A stretch of 11,475 nt of DNA from the NCBI GenBank assembly GCA_043810775.1, contig JBDRNU010000008.1, positions 1 to 11,475 on the forward strand, written 5' to 3'. Below, piece after piece: positions 1 to 6,729 of this stretch. Under the pieces are notes generated by a model that worked only from the letters and a program-made list of their open reading frames with translations, was not told where the DNA came from and searched no databases. Made by a program: the position numbers and the translations under genes. Within the stretch, counting starts at the first letter, position 1; each line of letters begins with the position of its first letter. The DNA is from an archaeon. Its GTDB lineage: Archaea > Nanobdellota > Nanobdellia > Pacearchaeales > GW2011-AR1.

Positions 1-147
1 AAAGGTGTGGTTTGTTGGAACTTTAGGATGCTCAGAAATGCTCATCCACATCCTAAAGCTTCAGGAATGAAAATTCCTGATAGTCATCAAAAATCTTTGA
101 TTTTTGAGAGATATGGTTTTCGCTTAGCATTTCTGACATAAAAATAG
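1..147. mobile_element. Composite palindromic repeat, copy 1 (left part cut by window edge); putative non-autonomous IS200/IS605-like miniature element
   Basis: Matches 3019-3165 at 145/147 nt (mismatches at 9 and 142). Contains nested inverted repeats: TCAGAAATGCT(32-42)/AGCATTTCTGA(126-136), CTTTAGGATG(21-30)/CATCCTAAAG(49-58), TCAGGAAT/ATTCCTGA (61-80) and TCAAAAATC/GATTTTTGA (87-107). The repeat is certain; mobility is inferred. Confidence 0.75.
59..109. repeat. Twin bulged-hairpin unit, copy A
   Basis: CT-TCAGGAAT-gaaa-ATTCCTGA-t-AG followed directly by TC-a-TCAAAAATC-ttt-GATTTTTGA-GA. Same architecture as 5070-5123. Confidence 0.85.
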
Positions 148-226: not shown

Positions 227-475
227 TTATTGTTTATCTTTATGATAAAAATCTAAGAAAACTAATTTATTTTCTTCTTTTAAATAAACATAAGATAATC
301 TAAAGGATCCTATGTAAACTTCTCTTGTACCTTTTCTTACATATCTTATTGGTTTACCTATTTCAGGATTTTCTATTATTTTTTTAATTTTCTTCTTTAT
401 TTGATTAAGAGTAGAATTATCTTTTACTTTAGAAATTCTTCTAAGAAAATTCTCTTTTCTTTCAATATTTAACAT
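227..475 (-). CDS. Type II toxin, RelE/ParE/StbE superfamily
   Basis: 82 aa, basic. ENPEIGKPIR..RKGTREVYIGSFRLSY..LVFLDFYHKD matches the RelE-type pattern. Start overlaps the antitoxin stop. Confidence 0.85.
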   Translation of the reverse strand: MLNIERKENFLRRISKVKDNSTLNQIKKKIKKIIENPEIGKPIRYVRKGTREVYIGSFRLSYVYLKEENKLVFLDFYHKDKQ

Positions 476-738
476 TTTTCCAGTTCTTCTAGAAATTTGT
501 CAGCAGATTGAGAAATAAACTCTCCCTTTTCATAACTTTGCCATGCTTCTTCTGTTCTTTTTGCAAAATCTAAGTCTTCTCTCATTTTTTCAGTTACTCC
601 ACTAACTTTTTTTAAGATAATCCTATCATCATCTTTAATTATCAACAACTCATCACCTTCTTTTAAATTATTTCTCATTTCTGAAGGAATCACAATCTGC
701 CCTTTTGAACTTATCTTTGTTACGTTTATGCTTACCAT
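469..738 (-). CDS. AbrB/MazE/SpoVT-family DNA-binding antitoxin
   Basis: N-terminal TKISSKGQIVIPSEMR..LKEGDELLI swapped-hairpin motif and an acidic C-terminus. Lies directly upstream of the RelE-like gene. Confidence 0.9.
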   Translation of the reverse strand: MVSINVTKISSKGQIVIPSEMRNNLKEGDELLIIKDDDRIILKKVSGVTEKMREDLDFAKRTEEAWQSYEKGEFISQSADKFLEELEKC

Positions 739-834
739 AGTAAGACATATCTTACATAGTATTTAAATATTTCTATTCTAGAAAAAAACTCCCACAAATA
801 CCATCTCCTATTGAAAATGATAGATGCCACAGCC

Positions 835-1002
835 TTAAGGCTTCTTTGCATTTCTTACATTTTTACCTTCTGCCATTAAATTTTTTTCTAAGGCAAGGGC
901 TTGGTCATTAAAAGAAATATTAAATTCATCAGTAGTATCTGGGCCTTCACCTATAAAAGTAGCACTAAAACTACGTTCTTGTGCCTCAAGATACATCACC
1001 AT
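835..1002 (-). CDS. Small hypothetical protein (ATG at 1002 preferred over TTG at 1026)
   Basis: Short ORF filling an intergenic gap, co-oriented with its neighbours. No motif recognised. Confidence 0.4.
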   Translation of the reverse strand: MVMYLEAQERSFSATFIGEGPDTTDEFNISFNDQALALEKNLMAEGKNVRNAKKP

Positions 1003-1083
1003 AGAAGGATTACTAAACAAATACAACGTGGCTCTAGATATTTATTGCAAAAAATAATATAATTGTTTACTTTTAAAGTTTAG

Positions 1084-1524
1084 TTACTCTTCTTTAATAT
1101 CTCTTACTCCAATTCCAATTTTATCTCCATGTATCCATTTATAATCTCCTCTATCGTGGACACGCCTCTCATCAAATACTCCCTGTTCATATCTCAATGC
1201 TATTAACAAACCTAGAGCCATCCTTCTTTTGCATTCAACCATTCCTGCTTCATATAAAACCCCCATTGAGGAATATTCATGTTCACCAATTCTTGTCGTT
1301 AAGTCCATTTCAACACCTAAACAATCCTGTCTCTCAACTTGTCTTGATGTGATGGTAATCTTAGTAGGAAACACACTAACAAATTCATCAAATAATTCAG
1401 GCAATTTAGAATATGATTCACTTGGTATTCCTCTTTCCCATGCTACTGCCTTGTCAAATAAATTTTTTCTTCTTTCTTCTATTGCTTTATCATAATTTTC
1501 TTGCGAGGCGCCTATGTGCAACAT
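1084..1524 (-). CDS. Hypothetical protein
   Basis: 146 aa ORF with natural globular composition and an AT-rich TATA-like sequence upstream. No family recognised. Confidence 0.7.
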   Translation of the reverse strand: MLHIGASQENYDKAIEERRKNLFDKAVAWERGIPSESYSKLPELFDEFVSVFPTKITITSRQVERQDCLGVEMDLTTRIGEHEYSSMGVLYEAGMVECKRRMALGLLIALRYEQGVFDERRVHDRGDYKWIHGDKIGIGVRDIKEE

Positions 1525-1578
1525 AAAACTTATCTATTTATAGGGTTTAAAAAATTATTGTTTTTCTCTTAATAATCA

Positions 1579-2346
1579 CTAATATCTATAAAACAAAACC
1601 AGCTTTCCGCTTTCATCTCTCAAGTATAAGGAATCCCTATCATCATTCCACACCCCGCCGCACCCCTTAATTATTTTTGAGCTCCTAATTACAAGCTCAT
1701 TGCCAGAGCTAATTATTTGAGTAAGCTTATAGAAATGATTTGCATCATCCTTTATCTCCCACCCCTGCAAGTTGCAGTCAAAATTACAGCTGTTTTTCAA
1801 CTTAATATATTCAGCCTCAGCTTCGCACTCACCTTCAGGATTATTTTCAATTTCCTCAAGTTTAATACAGCTTCCGCATTCATCACTGGATTTTTCCCAT
1901 AATCCCACCTCCATTTCTCTTGCTCTTTTTTCAGCTCTCTCAATTTCACTAGTATACTTGGTTTTATCATAATAATATAAAGTTCCTAAGCCATTTCCTG
2001 CAATTTCTTCATTTACCAGCTTCCCCTCATAAAAAACATATCTAAGCTTTCTCTCATATTTATCATCCTCACTTCCATATAGCTCAACCTCACTTCCTTC
2101 TAAATAAGCTAGAAAATCCTTAGCTTCTTCATAGCCAGCTTTGCCTTTTTCGGGAGTATTTATATCAAGTAATCTTATATCTCCCATACTTGTTTCAATA
2201 GTATCCCCGTCAATAATTCTTGTAATATTTGCTAATTCAAAATTATCCTTATCTTGAAAGCCATTATAAAAATATATAAAGCCAGAAAAATTCGCTAATA
2301 CAAGCAAAAATACCAAAATTCCAAGCCAGGTTCTTGCTAATTTCAT
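1579..2346 (-). CDS. Membrane-anchored thermonuclease (SNase) with C-terminal lamin-tail domain
   Basis: N-terminal hydrophobic anchor. SNase motifs IDGDTI, IRLLDINTPE, DKYERKLRYV and AREMEVGLW. LTD-like EYIKLKN..NLQGWEIKD..VWNDDRDSLYLRDESGKLV. Confidence 0.9.
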   Translation of the reverse strand: MKLARTWLGILVFLLVLANFSGFIYFYNGFQDKDNFELANITRIIDGDTIETSMGDIRLLDINTPEKGKAGYEEAKDFLAYLEGSEVELYGSEDDKYERKLRYVFYEGKLVNEEIAGNGLGTLYYYDKTKYTSEIERAEKRAREMEVGLWEKSSDECGSCIKLEEIENNPEGECEAEAEYIKLKNSCNFDCNLQGWEIKDDANHFYKLTQIISSGNELVIRSSKIIKGCGGVWNDDRDSLYLRDESGKLVLFYRY

Positions 2347-2414
2347 AAATAAATAAAGGCATAAGCTTTTTAAACCATATCTATTACTTAATTCAATGAT
2401 AGATAAATTTAATA

Positions 2415-2448
2415 GGAAAGTTAGCCAAGAAAACCTTGGTTGTCAGGC
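2415..2448 (+). promoter_or_regulatory. Conserved 5' leader motif upstream of rpsJ (uninterrupted copy)
   Basis: GGAAAGTTAGCCAAGA-AAACC-tt-GGTTGTCAGGC ends 2 nt before ATG 2451 and recurs at 5054-5142. It can form an AGCCAAG/CTTGGTT stem. Confidence 0.65.
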
Positions 2449-2450
2449 AA

Positions 2451-2762
2451 ATGACATCTAAAGTAAGAATAAAACTAAGTAGTGTCGATATAGACATGCT
2501 TAATCAGATTTGCGATATAATCAAAGATATAGCTGAAAAATCAGGAGTCCCTATTTCAGGGCCAATACCTATTCCTACTAAAAAGCTTAAAATTACTACA
2601 CGAAAATCTCCATGCGGAGACGGTACAGCTACTTTTGATAGGTTTGAGATGAGAATTTACAAGAGAATTATAGACCTTCCTGCCAATGACCGGGTTCTTC
2701 ACGCTATTATGAGAACTTCTATTCCTCGTTCTGTAAGCATTAAAATTGAGATGAAAAACTAG
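2451..2762 (+). CDS. rpsJ: 30S ribosomal protein S10 (uS10), archaeal type
   Basis: RIKLSS..SGPIPIPTKKLKITTRKSPCGDGTATFDRFEMRIYKRIIDL is the archaeal S10 signature. ATG 2451 gives 103 aa. Confidence 0.97.
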   Translation: MTSKVRIKLSSVDIDMLNQICDIIKDIAEKSGVPISGPIPIPTKKLKITTRKSPCGDGTATFDRFEMRIYKRIIDLPANDRVLHAIMRTSIPRSVSIKIEMKN

Positions 2763-2987
2763 AATTTTTAGTTATCATGGTGATATTAATTACCTCATAC
2801 ATTTATAAAGTTTAATGGCTCCTTTTCATAATGGAATTAGAAGTCCTTTCAGAGCAGAAAAGTAAAGGCTTGTCTGATGAGGAACTTTCAGCCATGTTTA
2901 CTGATTCTTTTAAAGGAGGAACCTTAGTTGAATATAAAGATAGAAGAGGATTTACTGAAGAATTTGGCAGGGCAAGAGTTAGTAAAA

Positions 2988-3165
2988 TCAAAAAGTTCCT
3001 TGAGTTTACCACACCTTAAAAGGTGTAGTTTGTTGGAACTTTAGGATGCTCAGAAATGCTCATCCACATCCTAAAGCTTCAGGAATGAAAATTCCTGATA
3101 GTCATCAAAAATCTTTGATTTTTGAGAGATATGGTTTTCGCTTAGCATTTCTGACATAATAATAG
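2988..3165. mobile_element. Composite palindromic repeat, copy 2 (apparently complete; ends approximate)
   Basis: 3019-3165 is near-identical to 1-147. The left hairpin TA-CCACACCT-TAAA-AGGTGTAG-TTTG (3007-3032) is enclosed by AAAGTTCC(2992-2999)/GGAACTTT(3035-3042). It interrupts a reading frame. Confidence 0.75.
3077..3127. repeat. Twin bulged-hairpin unit, copy B
   Basis: Identical to 59-109. Confidence 0.85.
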
Positions 3166-3546
3166 ATGAACTGGAAATAAAAATAGAAACAGATAAGCGC
3201 CTAGAAGGGCAAAGAGGTGGAGCCTCTCTTGAATATCATGATTATAGCAAAATAAGTGCAAGAGTAACTGATGGGGTAATTTATATGGATGTGTCCTATT
3301 TATGGTGTTATGCTCTAGCGCCTAAAGGAATAGAAATACCAAGACCAGAATCTAATAATTAACTAGCCAGCCTCAAAAAAGGAAAAAGGGAAAAAATATC
3401 CCTCATTTCCCCTTAGTCTTTTACAAAATAGCTTTATCATTAGAATTTATAAGCATATAGCCACTTCTAAATATATGTTTAGAAAATTACTTCTAAATAT
3501 ATTCCTTAACCATAATATTTAAATAGTGATTCAAAGCTACATACTC

Positions 3547-3933
3547 ATGGCCACAATAGGAAACTTAGAGCTAAGAACTGGGCAAGAAACCCTATATGCA
3601 TCAAGCACCCATGATGGTGATAGGGCTTATGAAATTCTTCCAAAGTTAGTTAACTTTCTTGATTCAAGAGAAAATCCAACAATCACCCAATTTCAGGATT
3701 GGTTTAAAACAAAATCCAAAGCTCTTTTACCATATAATCATCGTAAAGAATTACTAGGTGGAGCTCCGTGTGAAGTAATAATTGATGTTCCAAGAAAGTT
3801 AGTATTGCATACTGCTCAAGATGAATTCACCACACGTTTTGAAAATGCTTGCATTTTGCTTAGAGAAAAATATAATTATGAAATTCTACCATATACTCCA
3901 CCACTAATAAGAAATTCTCAGGATACTATCTAA
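3547..3933 (+). CDS. Hypothetical protein (ATG 3547 preferred)
   Basis: ~128 aa ORF preceded by TATA-like TTTAAATA at about 3518-3525. No family recognised. Confidence 0.7.
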   Translation: MATIGNLELRTGQETLYASSTHDGDRAYEILPKLVNFLDSRENPTITQFQDWFKTKSKALLPYNHRKELLGGAPCEVIIDVPRKLVLHTAQDEFTTRFENACILLREKYNYEILPYTPPLIRNSQDTI

Positions 3934-4649: not shown

Positions 4650-4731
4650 GCCCACGTCGCATAATGGTATTGCACGGGACTGGAACTCCCGGCCCGTTTT
4701 GGGCGTCCAGGTTCGATTCCTGGCGTGGGCG
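4650..4731 (+). tRNA. tRNA-Ser(GGA)
   Basis: Acceptor GCCCACG/CGTGGGC with discriminator G. D arm GCA/TGC. Anticodon stem CGGGA/TCCCG with loop CT-GGA-AC. Long variable arm GCCC/GGGC. T arm CCAGG-TTCGATT-CCTGG. No CCA encoded. Confidence 0.97.
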
Positions 4732-4869: not shown

Positions 4870-4883
4870 CCTGGCGTGGGCGT
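4870..4883 (+). repeat. Direct repeat of the tRNA-Ser 3' end (att-like)
   Basis: CCTGGCGTGGGCGT is identical at 4719-4732 and 4870-4883, 151 bp apart. Confidence 0.85.
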
Positions 4884-5053
4884 CGAGCGATTTCACGAGG
4901 CAATCTTTATTAATTAAATAACAAGTGAGGTCGCGAGTTTTCTCATTTCTTATTAATTAAATTAAGGTAACAAAGAAACTCAAAGCTTAGCTTTAAATAC
5001 TAATTTAACTATATATATATAATAAATATTAATTAAATATAAGCTATCTAAAG

Positions 5054-5142
5054 GGAAAGTTAGCCAAGACTTCAGAAATAGAAGCATTTCTGAGAGTGCT
5101 CGGAAATCCAAAGATTTCCGACAAAACCGTAGGTTGTCAGGC
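5054..5142 (+). promoter_or_regulatory. Second copy of the rpsJ-type leader, interrupted by a 54 bp insertion
   Basis: GGAAAGTTAGCCAAGA (5054-5069), then the insert, then AAACC-gta-GGTTGTCAGGC (5124-5142) directly before ATG 5143. Confidence 0.65.
5070..5123. mobile_element. Twin bulged-hairpin unit, copy C
   Basis: CT-TCAGAAAT-agaagc-ATTTCTGA-g-AG (27 nt) plus TG-c-TCGGAAATC-caaa-GATTTCCGA-CA (27 nt). Absent from the homologous site at 2430/2431. Confidence 0.75.
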
Positions 5143-5682
5143 ATGGCAAAAAAGGTGAATAAAAAGCAATTATCAGGAAAAAGCTGGAAATCAATTATCC
5201 TTGCACTGGCTATAGCTATAATTCTTACAGCATTTATATTTCAGGTTATTAATACTATATACGAACGTCCTGAATGGACAGACTTCTGCCCAGAATCCCC
5301 TCCACTCTATCTAGATGAGCAAAACTGCACTCTAGCAGGAGGTATGTGGACAGGTTCAGCATTTACAGACCCTTCAATGCCAAAATCAACTGGCTACTGC
5401 GATATAAACTATAAATGCCAAAAAGAATATGAATCAGTAGATGTAGTCTACCGGGAAAAAGTATTTATTATTGCAGTAATCACAGGGCTTATAGTTTTAA
5501 TAGTAGGAATAATCTTAGGGCTACAGAGTGTTTCTCTCGGGTTAATGGGCGGCGGGGTCATCACTATGTTCATAGGAACAATTCAGTACTGGGATAGGCT
5601 TGGAAAATATCTAAGGCTGATAATTCTCGGAGTAGTCTTAGCAATTCTAATCTGGATAGGATACAAGAAACTAAAGCACTGA
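5143..5682 (+). CDS. Hypothetical membrane protein (4 predicted TM segments, Cys-containing extracellular loop)
   Basis: One N-terminal and three C-terminal hydrophobic segments, with four Cys in the loop. ATG 5143 preferred over TTG 5134. Confidence 0.8.
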   Translation: MAKKVNKKQLSGKSWKSIILALAIAIILTAFIFQVINTIYERPEWTDFCPESPPLYLDEQNCTLAGGMWTGSAFTDPSMPKSTGYCDINYKCQKEYESVDVVYREKVFIIAVITGLIVLIVGIILGLQSVSLGLMGGGVITMFIGTIQYWDRLGKYLRLIILGVVLAILIWIGYKKLKH

Positions 5683-6729
5683 TTAAGCAACTCTTACTTC
5701 TAATAAAGGTTTTAGATGAGCTAAATGCTCATGTCCTCTTTCTCGTGAATAAAATCTAGCATCCCATTGGGTAGTAAATTCAACTTTAAGTCTTCTAGTA
5801 AGGTCTTTTTTACAATTATTAAAATAGATTTGAAATCCCTTAAATGTTAAAGGATTGCAACCAACTCCATCAATTTCTGGAGAAAAGCATCCAACTTTAG
5901 TTCTAAAAGCTTGCATTTTTTCAATAATTTCAATCATCTGCATAGCTACTTCATCAGATTTAAGAGGCTTATTTTTACCTTTACTAACTTCTTCTGCCAT
6001 CCTTCTTGTATATTCAGAATTTGGAGAAGCATTAATTCCCATAAAAGTCAAAAACTTTGGCTTAATATATTCAAGAACTAGAGCAGTTTCGTTAACATGC
6101 TCTTCATAAAATCTAGCTCCACCCAATCCAGGCATAATCATCACAGAAGTAGACACTCCAGTATTGCTTATCTCAGCTGCAGCTTTTAAAATATCTTCTT
6201 GAGTTACTCCTTTCTTGACATATTTCATCAAATCAGTAGAGCCAGTTTCAACACCCCAATAAACTAAATCCAAAAGTCCTTTCTCATACAAATCCCAAAG
6301 GCCTCTATCTTTCTTATTTTTTATGCTGTCTGTTCTTCCATAAATTGCAATTCTTCTAGGTCTGTATCCACCATTACTTTTGGCAAATTTATGTCTTGTA
6401 TATTGTAAAGCATCAATTAGCTTATTAGTTTTCACAGCTAAACCATTGCCCCCGCCAACAAATATTCTAGTTAACCTATCAGCTAATTCAGGATGAACTC
6501 TAGCATATACATCATCTACATGTGCCTTATACTCCTCAAGAGTTTTTTCTCTAAATCTAACTCCATCAAAACCTCCGCAATAGGTACATTTCCCATAATT
6601 ACACCCTTCAGTCAGCTCAAACCTAATTACATGCGGAAGTCTTTCAGCTGGAGGTGAAAACATATCTTCAGATGAATATAAACTTCTGTCTTTATACAAA
6701 GTTTCAACTTGTTTGACTTTTCTTGCCAT
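5683..6729 (-). CDS. Radical SAM protein
   Basis: GCNYGKCTYC cluster motif, RIFVGGGN, VYWGVETGS, SVMIMPGLGG. Confidence 0.92.
   Translation of the reverse strand: MARKVKQVETLYKDRSLYSSEDMFSPPAERLPHVIRFELTEGCNYGKCTYCGGFDGVRFREKTLEEYKAHVDDVYARVHPELADRLTRIFVGGGNGLAVKTNKLIDALQYTRHKFAKSNGGYRPRRIAIYGRTDSIKNKKDRGLWDLYEKGLLDLVYWGVETGSTDLMKYVKKGVTQEDILKAAAEISNTGVSTSVMIMPGLGGARFYEEHVNETALVLEYIKPKFLTFMGINASPNSEYTRRMAEEVSKGKNKPLKSDEVAMQMIEIIEKMQAFRTKVGCFSPEIDGVGCNPLTFKGFQIYFNNCKKDLTRRLKVEFTTQWDARFYSRERGHEHLAHLKPLLEVRVA

Follow-up and report, generated by a model that had tools for sequence, protein, structure and literature searches.

PATEs, which are gene-less derivatives of IS200/IS605 elements, have been described for Haloquadratum (PMC3119063) and Geobacillus (PMC10055086). 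According to the account given for IS200/IS605 elements and PATEs in the latter source, insertion takes place beside a fixed tetranucleotide and without target duplication, like hairpins are found on one strand, and the 3' end carries a fixed motif (PMC10055086). The REP and BIME sequences of bacteria are moved by RAYT transposases, and the enzyme, which is IS200-like, is believed to act on them in single-stranded form (PMC3733652, PMC2817692).

The window, by which we mean the whole stretch of 11,475 nucleotides that was analyzed, carries two copies of a composite element that has relatives in other DPANN archaea. Like PATEs, this element is gene-free and has like subterminal hairpins at both ends on one strand (CCACACCT-TAAA-AGGTGTRG for arm 1, CCACATC(C)-TAAA..GATATGG for arm 2, with the same arrangement in the relatives). 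It also shares with PATEs the position beside a fixed 4-nt motif without duplication, the fixed 3' motif, the presence of several to many copies per genome and, possibly, a pairing of the end motifs with internal bases. It differs from PATEs in that neither an autonomous relative nor a transposase was seen in the sampled loci, in that a second helix, which covaries, surrounds each of the end hairpins, in that extra hairpin modules are taken up in the loops, and in its hosts, which are DPANN archaea. With REP and BIME sequences the family shares short palindromic units, mosaic clusters of varied order and orientation, and a mainly extragenic location with occasional copies in genes. However, the DPANN units lack the GTAG or CGTC tag of these sequences, and their tags read GC-TCA..TGA-CAT instead. 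Moreover, the DPANN stems are AT-rich, the composite has two defined arms and fixed ends, the host is archaeal, and no RAYT-like gene was seen.

Taken together, our sequence comparisons show a self-nesting, structure-defined family of non-autonomous elements with an IS200/IS605-like insertion rule, and the attribution to IS200/IS605 that had been made in a sequence-only reading of this DNA gains indirect support. On balance, we favor the view that this is a gene-less mobile element family, widespread in DPANN archaea, which would be moved in trans by a Y1/HUH transposase of the IS200/IS605 kind or by a similar enzyme. DPANN archaea have some of the smallest cellular genomes, and the family is frequent in spite of this, with three units in the 11.5-kb window. 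Its members disrupt genes, occur within reading frames and alter leaders, and for each arm they provide occupied as well as empty sites as a natural series. The insertion rule (3' of ATCA, no duplication) could be used to seek the enzyme, to correct the annotation of split genes in MAGs and to test single-strand transposition.

Anatomy of the composite element and its two copies

As had been stated in the sequence-only reading, positions 1-147 and 3019-3165 are identical at 145 of 147 bases, which was confirmed both with a repeat finder and by direct comparison. The two mismatches are located at 9/3027 and 142/3160. Judged from the relatives, the element ends at 3159 (corresponding to 141), which means that the second mismatch already belongs to the flank and that, within the limits of the element, the two copies are identical at 140 of 141 bases. 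Copy 1 (1-141, plus strand, as are all features of the element given here) corresponds to 3019-3159, its left part and left flank being located beyond the start of the window. Copy 2 (2991-3159, 169 nt) consists of arm 1, a linker, arm 2 with a nested twin unit, and a CATAA end. The bounds proposed earlier, 2988-3165, need to be shifted, since they start one base inside the flanking ATCA and end six bases past the element.

Arm 1 (2992-3042) is recognized by the covariance model R1 with 66.5 bits (E 7e-15). Its outer helix P1 is formed by AAAGTTCC (2992-2999) and GGAACTTT (3035-3042), and its inner helix P2 by CCACACCT (3009-3016) and AGGTGTAG (3021-3028) around a TAAA loop (3017-3020), the 5' loop being TTGAGTTTA and the 3' loop TTTGTT. 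The linker AGGATGC (3043-3049) contains a GAT that can pair with the flanking ATC and an ATG that can pair with the terminal CAT. In arm 2 (3050-3154), the outer helix P3 is formed by TCAGAAATGCT (3050-3060) and AGCATTTCTGA (3144-3154), is closed by ATG..CAT and has a bulged C. It encloses CAT, the inner hairpin P4, a TAAAG loop that carries the twin unit, and the 3' loop TTTTCGCTT. P4 pairs CCACATC (3064-3070) with GATATGG (3128-3134) in seven pairs, one of which is a C.A mismatch, and it is interrupted by the two-hairpin twin unit (3077-3127, 51 nt). Twin hairpin 1 (3079-3098) reads TCAGGAAT-GAAA-ATTCCTGA, and twin hairpin 2 (3105-3125) reads TCAAAAATC-TTT-GATTTTTGA. The 3' terminal motif CATAA (3155-3159) fits the family consensus GACATAA. 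The three levels of nesting and the hairpins described in the sequence-only reading are therefore all present in the window sequence, with one correction: the inner hairpin of arm 2 does exist, but its 3' half, given as GGATATGG, actually reads AGATATGG. In folding, the 196-nt stretch beat all 200 shuffles on both strands (z -4.5 on the plus strand and -5.6 on the minus strand).

Immediately after the mismatch at 142/3160, the five bases AATAG match in both flanks (142-147 and 3160-3165), for which the chance is about 0.002 for one offset. A copy at L006:6085 likewise shows AATAG past the end of the element, and either a target preference or chance could account for this. The two copies in the window are direct repeats 3 kb apart that bracket the S10 gene, and as such they could drive deletions.

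Insertion site, ends and interrupted genes

Copy 2 separates two pieces of one gene. The 5' part (2831-2990, plus strand) is 56% identical to residues 4-53 of P0001, a 120-aa protein obtained in an exhaustive profile search (E 2e-19), and its frame reads into the element, where it meets the stop codon TAA at 3017-3019 in the P2 loop. The 3' part (3160-3360, plus strand) is open, has no start codon, and is 45% identical to residues 58-115 of P0001 (E 7e-21), the matching frame being 3165-3359. For this 3' part, three representatives were found at E<=0.001 among 1.84 billion, and a 104-aa relative is in agreement. When exactly 2991-3159 (169 nt) is deleted, 58 and 67 open codons are joined without an indel, and the joined frame has 8 residues between RARV and EIKIE, which matches both homologues. 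The element-free junction expected in this gene is AAAATCA followed by TAATAGATG. In locus L077, a relative of the element splits a gene for an NYN-domain protein, the pieces of which correspond to residues 9-81 and 83-186 of an uninterrupted protein from L032. Here the deletion of 174 nt, from after ATCA to AGGATTAA, restores 92+107 codons, the junction codon gives the one missing residue, and the ATC codes for an Ile that is conserved in the uninterrupted homologue.

Colinear frames are recovered in the two interrupted genes only when the start of the element is placed behind ATCA. Exact removal at this point assigns ATCA to the target, and the two restored genes define the element as 2991-3159 of the window, with no duplication made. 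The ATCA at 2987-2990 (plus strand) is thus most likely a target-derived, transposon-adjacent motif. As read from these alignments, copy 2 split a conserved gene of about 120 amino acids, and the element inserts immediately 3' of ATCA without target duplication. Since the window copies differ at 1 of 141 bases, the insertion and the disruption of the gene are recent, and the two halves of the gene are still intact. Short joined frames with 21-29 codons on the right were obtained after removal of the element in L027, L006:392 and L062:7813, and these were left out of the count of interrupted genes.

In alignments of copies within single genomes, the copies share the element and nothing past it, there is no flanking direct repeat, and the 5' side always reads ATC(A) at the point where the flanks diverge. 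An ATCA start was found for 30 of the 37 arm-1 matches listed, a number that should be read with the fact that the covariance model itself holds ATC. In 26 of the 31 composites tested, the 3' end was marked by one of the motifs GACAT(A/T)A, CTGTAT(A/T)A and AGGATTAA, past which the flanks were unrelated. Target duplications (TA, AT and repeats of 2-4 nt) were sought by eye in the within-genome and listed copies, and none was consistent.

The lack of a target duplication, both in the within-genome alignments and in the two interrupted genes, contradicts an ordinary MITE that moves by cut-and-paste through a DDE transposase with terminal inverted repeats (ATGTCARRAA..TTYYTGACAT) as its recognition sites. 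Such inverted ends do bound single hairpin modules and some composites, and a census counts one Woesearchaea genome, with 105 MITEs per Mb, among the most MITE-rich archaea (PMC11602168). However, the ends of the window composite are only loosely inverted, and its 5' flank is fixed (ATCA) while its 3' flank is free, so that we regard this explanation as very unlikely. No description of the element family was found in the literature searched; the supplementary MITE lists of PMC11602168 may include such elements.

The interrupted genes could also be viewed as genes that still work because the element is an intron and is removed from the transcript. The element is in sense orientation in both genes, its exact removal restores the frame, and neither gene half has decayed, although intact halves are also to be expected after a recent insertion (140/141 identity). 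A fold of 2980-3175 showed that the arms pair with themselves. The ends form neither a bulge-helix-bulge nor a 3-4-3 motif, and the predicted pairing of the exons is limited to 3+4 weak pairs. In addition, the element is too small, no Rfam self-splicing intron matched, and most copies are intergenic. This makes an intron extremely unlikely.

Distribution and architecture of the family in DPANN archaea

A pattern for hairpin 1 of the twin unit was scanned against 185,579 species genomes, the window's own genome not being among the matches. The scan yielded 97 stretches, 75 of which are DPANN archaeal by title (MAGs of Pacearchaeota, Woesearchaeota, Nanoarchaeota or Nanoarchaeia) and 22 bacterial. 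The bacterial matches are without a second hairpin and look like chance matches. Under a strict definition (TC[AG]..GA, stem >=7, loop 3-9), 212 hairpins were counted in the 75 archaeal loci (518 kb), compared to 12 in the shuffled archaeal loci and 18 in the 22 bacterial loci, whereby the densities are biased upward due to the selection of loci that hold one unit each. A looser census that allowed loops of up to 70 nt was rejected, the shuffled and bacterial counts being as high (202 versus 104 and 67). Searches with the arm-1 model R1 gave 74 matches at E<=0.1, which were confined to the window and the archaeal loci, with the 22 bacterial loci giving none, and the matches above 40 bits are distributed over 8 assemblies and the window. 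The phage and plasmid collections contained no match to the element.

When weaker and hand-aligned members are counted, the composite architecture is found in at least 12 DPANN assemblies. Arm 1, which has a CCACAC-TAAA hairpin, is followed by the GGATGC linker and by arm 2, where a hairpin of this type recurs, and the end is of the CATAA type. The basal element measures about 100-140 nt, with arm hairpins CCACAY..TAAA..RTGTGG and the terminus ..GACATAA. Within the linker, G58, G59, A60, T61 and C63 (window 3044-3047 and 3049) are invariant in an alignment of 15 sequences. This distribution leaves next to no room for a segmental duplication or an assembly artefact limited to the contig of the window, which we consider refuted as a full explanation. 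The window does show two copies, one of them at its edge, and five flank bases past the element also match. However, the flanks diverge from 3160 on, and the same architecture was recovered in at least 12 other assemblies from independent studies. The objection that only two copies with shared flanks might exist, which the sequence-only reading had itself raised, is thereby removed, and its view of a gene-less, recently copied miniature element agrees with the 140/141 identity and with the copies found elsewhere.

Locus L092 has the layout ATCAAAAAGTTC..GGATGC-TCAAGATTGC-ATTCAT-CCACATCC-TAAA-GGATGTGG-..-GCAATCTTGA-CATAA and is 82% identical to the window across 98 nt. Its arm 2 is without a twin unit and represents the empty site CCACATCC-TAAA-G^GATGTGG, from which the twin unit of the window can be recognized as a 51-nt insertion between G and G after TAAA. 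In L026, a twin unit is present in arm 1 only and there is none in arm 2. Neither arm carries one in L092, L032, L027, L053, L074, L008, L006 (three copies) and others, and the unit is inverted in arm 1 in five loci (L062, L074, L033, L067 and L088). Variants that lack the inner unit, which had been proposed as a check, thus exist in arm 2 of both L092 and L026. The suggestion that the element has taken up a smaller two-hairpin unit is likewise borne out by the empty site in L092 and by relatives that lack the unit or have it in the other arm, both orientations being represented. Optional modules of other lengths also occur: L042 has one of about 63 nt, L050 has one of about 87 nt, and 3 of the 5 JBBSXX01 copies have one of 52 nt.

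Within-genome alignments gave 5 copies for JBBSXX01, 6 for JAGVWZ01, 5 for JBBSZC01 and 8 for JAHIEH01, and JACPLT01, CAYMCA01 and DATDUA01 are further copy-rich MAGs. Near-identical copies are found at unrelated places within single genomes, and composites that already carry a module go on multiplying. In L006, three near-identical basal composites (392-531, 1419-1558 and 6085-6224) lie within 6 kb of one contig and could drive deletions. At L033 5560-6020 and L074 1800-2195, a composite in the same orientation stands behind each of two TrmB-family genes that share 77% identity. These two composites have the twin unit at the same place and differ in outer helix and arm 2, which may reflect either an old insertion with a kept fold or the repeated use of one site.

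The 51-nt twin unit

In addition to the units in the two composites, the window contains a third, diverged twin unit of 54 nt (5070-5123, plus strand), which is located inside a leader motif upstream of the ORF 5134-5682. Compared to 3077-3127, its stems show compensating changes (TCAGGAAT/ATTCCTGA versus TCAGAAAT/ATTTCTGA, and TCAAAAATC/GATTTTTGA versus TCGGAAATC/GATTTCCGA). This unit interrupts the leader motif GGAAAGTTAGCCAAGA^AAACC.TGGTTGTCAGGCA, and an uninterrupted leader motif precedes the S10 gene (2415-2448). The presence of an intact and an interrupted motif implies that a site can exist with or without the twin unit. The leader motif (GGAAAGTTAGCCAAGAAAACC.TGGTTGTCAGGCA) is positioned directly 5' of the start codons of both S10 (2415-2448) and the ORF 5134-5682 (5054-5140), and in the latter copy the twin unit occupies the A-rich loop of a small CCAAG/CTTGG hairpin.

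The 75 DPANN loci contain 77 more twin units. The commonest length is 51 nt (31 of the 69 units measured), and the loops of hairpin 1 are often of the GNRA type (GAAA, GTAA, GCAA, GTGA), which is an RNA-like trait. The twin unit with a GAAA loop was present in none of the 97 stretches matched in the hairpin-1 pattern scan. With respect to their placement (n=80), 25 units are located in a TAAA-type loop in the same orientation and 5 in such a loop in the opposite orientation, so that 30 of 80 lie inside the loop of another hairpin; 28 directly follow another hairpin, 21 have other contexts, and 1 is cut by the end of its locus. No fixed 5' flank was found for the twin unit, and it may therefore move by another rule than the composite. 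IS1397 targets the hairpin loops of E. coli palindromic units, and the twin unit resembles it in sitting in a hairpin loop in the 30 cases mentioned. It differs from IS1397 in that it consists of two hairpins, measures 51 nt and is non-coding.

The palindromic elements of Rickettsia are small palindromes that can sit in frame inside protein genes. In L082 (about 3175-3234, minus strand), a 51-nt twin unit is similarly in frame and stop-free within an ORF for an ATP-dependent DNA ligase (971-3802), where it lies between the N-terminal and adenylation domains; the same gene carries an intein. The window composite, in contrast, is 169 nt long, holds stop codons and breaks a gene, and no sequence relation to the Rickettsia elements is known. 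In L009 (about 510-1177, minus strand), a twin unit is located between the genes for bAvd and a reverse transcriptase, at the position expected for the template repeat of a diversity-generating retroelement. A hairpin cluster inside an ORF of L016 was rejected as a member. It represents a 39-nt tandem repeat in a CTP synthase gene that is unrelated to the hairpin family, with three in-frame tandem copies of YESGQQVHKPLEV at 2480-2598 that are absent from the 49% identical homologue in L097.

Of the 58 twin hairpin clusters that could be classified by gene layout, 11 lie between divergent, 15 between convergent and 32 between tandem genes. Pfam searches with 44 open frames that flank or span twin units (about 20 pairs) showed that almost all flanking pairs are separate complete genes, for instance proteasome alpha with SBDS, TYW3 with FtsZ, and SpoIIM with Nre. 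The reading of such pairs as split genes was rejected on these grounds.

Conservation of the stems in DNA or RNA

In 66 distinct twin units, 94.9% of the pair cells are standard, compared to 85.7% in shuffles (0 of 500 reached the observed value) and 25-59% in slid controls. Hairpin 2 was not constrained by the search pattern, and 8 of its 9 pairs show changes on both sides. Of 1056 twin pairs, 1038 are Watson-Crick, 3 are G.T, 8 are A.C and 7 are other combinations. The 22 distinct arm-1 folds share one architecture in which the outer helices differ and yet remain complementary, with few G.U pairs. P1 was described from single-sequence folds because the MAFFT alignment A4 offsets two P1 subtypes by one column. 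A closing helix ATC/GAT was predicted in 19 of the 22 distinct arms, the diverged member L073 having GTC..GAC. Pairing of ATC/GAT and CAT/ATG with the GGATGC linker is possible and predicted, with one or two covarying cases only. Conserved RNA helices usually tolerate G.U pairs, and the scarcity of wobble pairs is in keeping with hairpins acting at the DNA level.

An explanation that we consider unlikely, but that accounts for a good part of these data, is that the host keeps a structured RNA element, namely a 3' UTR terminator, a structure protecting against exonucleases or a processing site as proposed for REP and BIME sequences, and that copying is secondary. Consistent with this, 22 of 32 composites are co-oriented with the upstream gene and lie about 0-160 nt past its stop codon (binomial p = 0.025), a bias that a strand-specific mechanism would also give. 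All CCACAC hairpins have a T-rich tail, and 3011-3026 was flagged as terminator-like in a simple scan. Furthermore, the stems covary and decayed copies are scarce. Some arm-1 sequences are nearly identical across four MAGs, for which selection by the host is as good an explanation as recent spread, and the composites that follow the 77% identical TrmB orthologues in two genomes may occupy orthologous sites. The GNRA-type loops of hairpin 1 point in the same direction. On the other hand, G.U pairs are nearly absent (3 of 1056 cells), the twin clusters are not depleted between divergent genes (11 of 58), two copies break genes, and no conserved promoter-like upstream sequence was seen. Neither the window nor the basal copies came near the threshold of an Rfam family: with Rfam 15, the window matches only tRNA-Ser, and the basal copies in L032 and L092 reached at best 25.7 bits against a threshold of 70. 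Readings as a C/D-box, H/ACA, K-turn, hammerhead or bridge RNA were rejected because the box or core motifs are absent and because the internal loops are conserved while the stems are variable.

Search for an enzyme and proposed mechanism of transposition

None of the 19 ORFs in the window is a tnpA, tnpB or iscB gene. Among the 37 arm-1 matches listed, two of which are solo or mis-registered, there was no gene between the arms, and hence no parent element with tnpA, tnpB or iscB between the same hairpins, for which a search had been advised in the sequence-only reading. The 75 archaeal loci contain 456 ORFs of at least 110 aa; the 44+18+8 locus and reference proteins that were searched with Pfam correspond to far less than one fifth of these, and no tnpA, tnpB or iscB was among them. 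A crude shortlist of HUH and CxxC..CxxC motifs over the 456 ORFs gave 3+5 candidates, none of them a transposase. An all-against-all comparison of these ORFs revealed no multicopy family, and the repeated ORF clusters were assigned by Pfam to NYN, PIN, nucleotidyltransferase, TrmB and AAA_14. The attribution to IS200/IS605 receives indirect support from two genes split 3' of ATCA without duplication and from like end hairpins on one strand, but not from any gene of the tnpA, tnpB or iscB kind in the window or the loci examined.

The element is probably moved in trans and as single-stranded DNA. In the mechanism that we propose, both like hairpins would be bound, on a single strand, by a Y1/HUH transposase of IS200/IS605 type or by an enzyme with a similar action. 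Cleavage by this enzyme would occur directly behind the flanking ATCA and the terminal CATAA, two sites that may pair with the central GGATGC. On this reading, the element would be a PATE-type derivative. The ATC/GAT and CAT/ATG pairings recall the DNA guides of IS200/IS605. In IS608, the left guide lies 5' of the hairpin, whereas the partner of the left motif of the DPANN element lies 3' of arm 1; the pairing bases may have a guide function.

A bolder version of the transposition model, which we regard as distinctly unlikely, has two parts. The composite would be a PATE whose two-arm fold serves as an omega or reRNA scaffold for a TnpB-like nuclease acting in trans, in which case ATCA would be the target-adjacent motif and the flank past CATAA the guide. 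The second part concerns the 51-nt twin unit, which would be an extremely small mobile hairpin pair in its own right and would enter single-stranded A-rich hairpin loops. If the arms were such a guide-RNA scaffold, this would suggest that an unexplored group possesses compact RNA-guided nucleases, and together with a loop-integrating twin unit this would mean that reduced genomes host a self-nesting hierarchy of structure-defined elements.

Genes and other repeats in the window

The window is AT-rich (G+C 33.7%) and its gene content is archaeal, with genes for ribosomal protein S10, tRNA-Ser, and radical-SAM, CCG and FAD-oxidase proteins. It is partly syntenic with the Pacearchaeota MAG locus L035, at 52-62% amino-acid identity. 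Copy 1 of the element is adjoined by overlapping genes for a ParE-like toxin and a MazE/AbrB-like antitoxin (227-738, minus strand), and a toxin-antitoxin pair that is 55-59% identical to this pair is present in L094. The final 13 bases of the tRNA-Ser(GGA) gene at 4650-4731, CCTGGCGTGGGCG, are repeated 140 nt downstream at 4871-4883, in a manner that resembles the paired attachment sites of an element integrated in a tRNA gene. The stretch that separates the two 13-base copies is gene-free and contains many hairpins, and the region 4870-4941 is 80% identical to positions 86-156 of L035.
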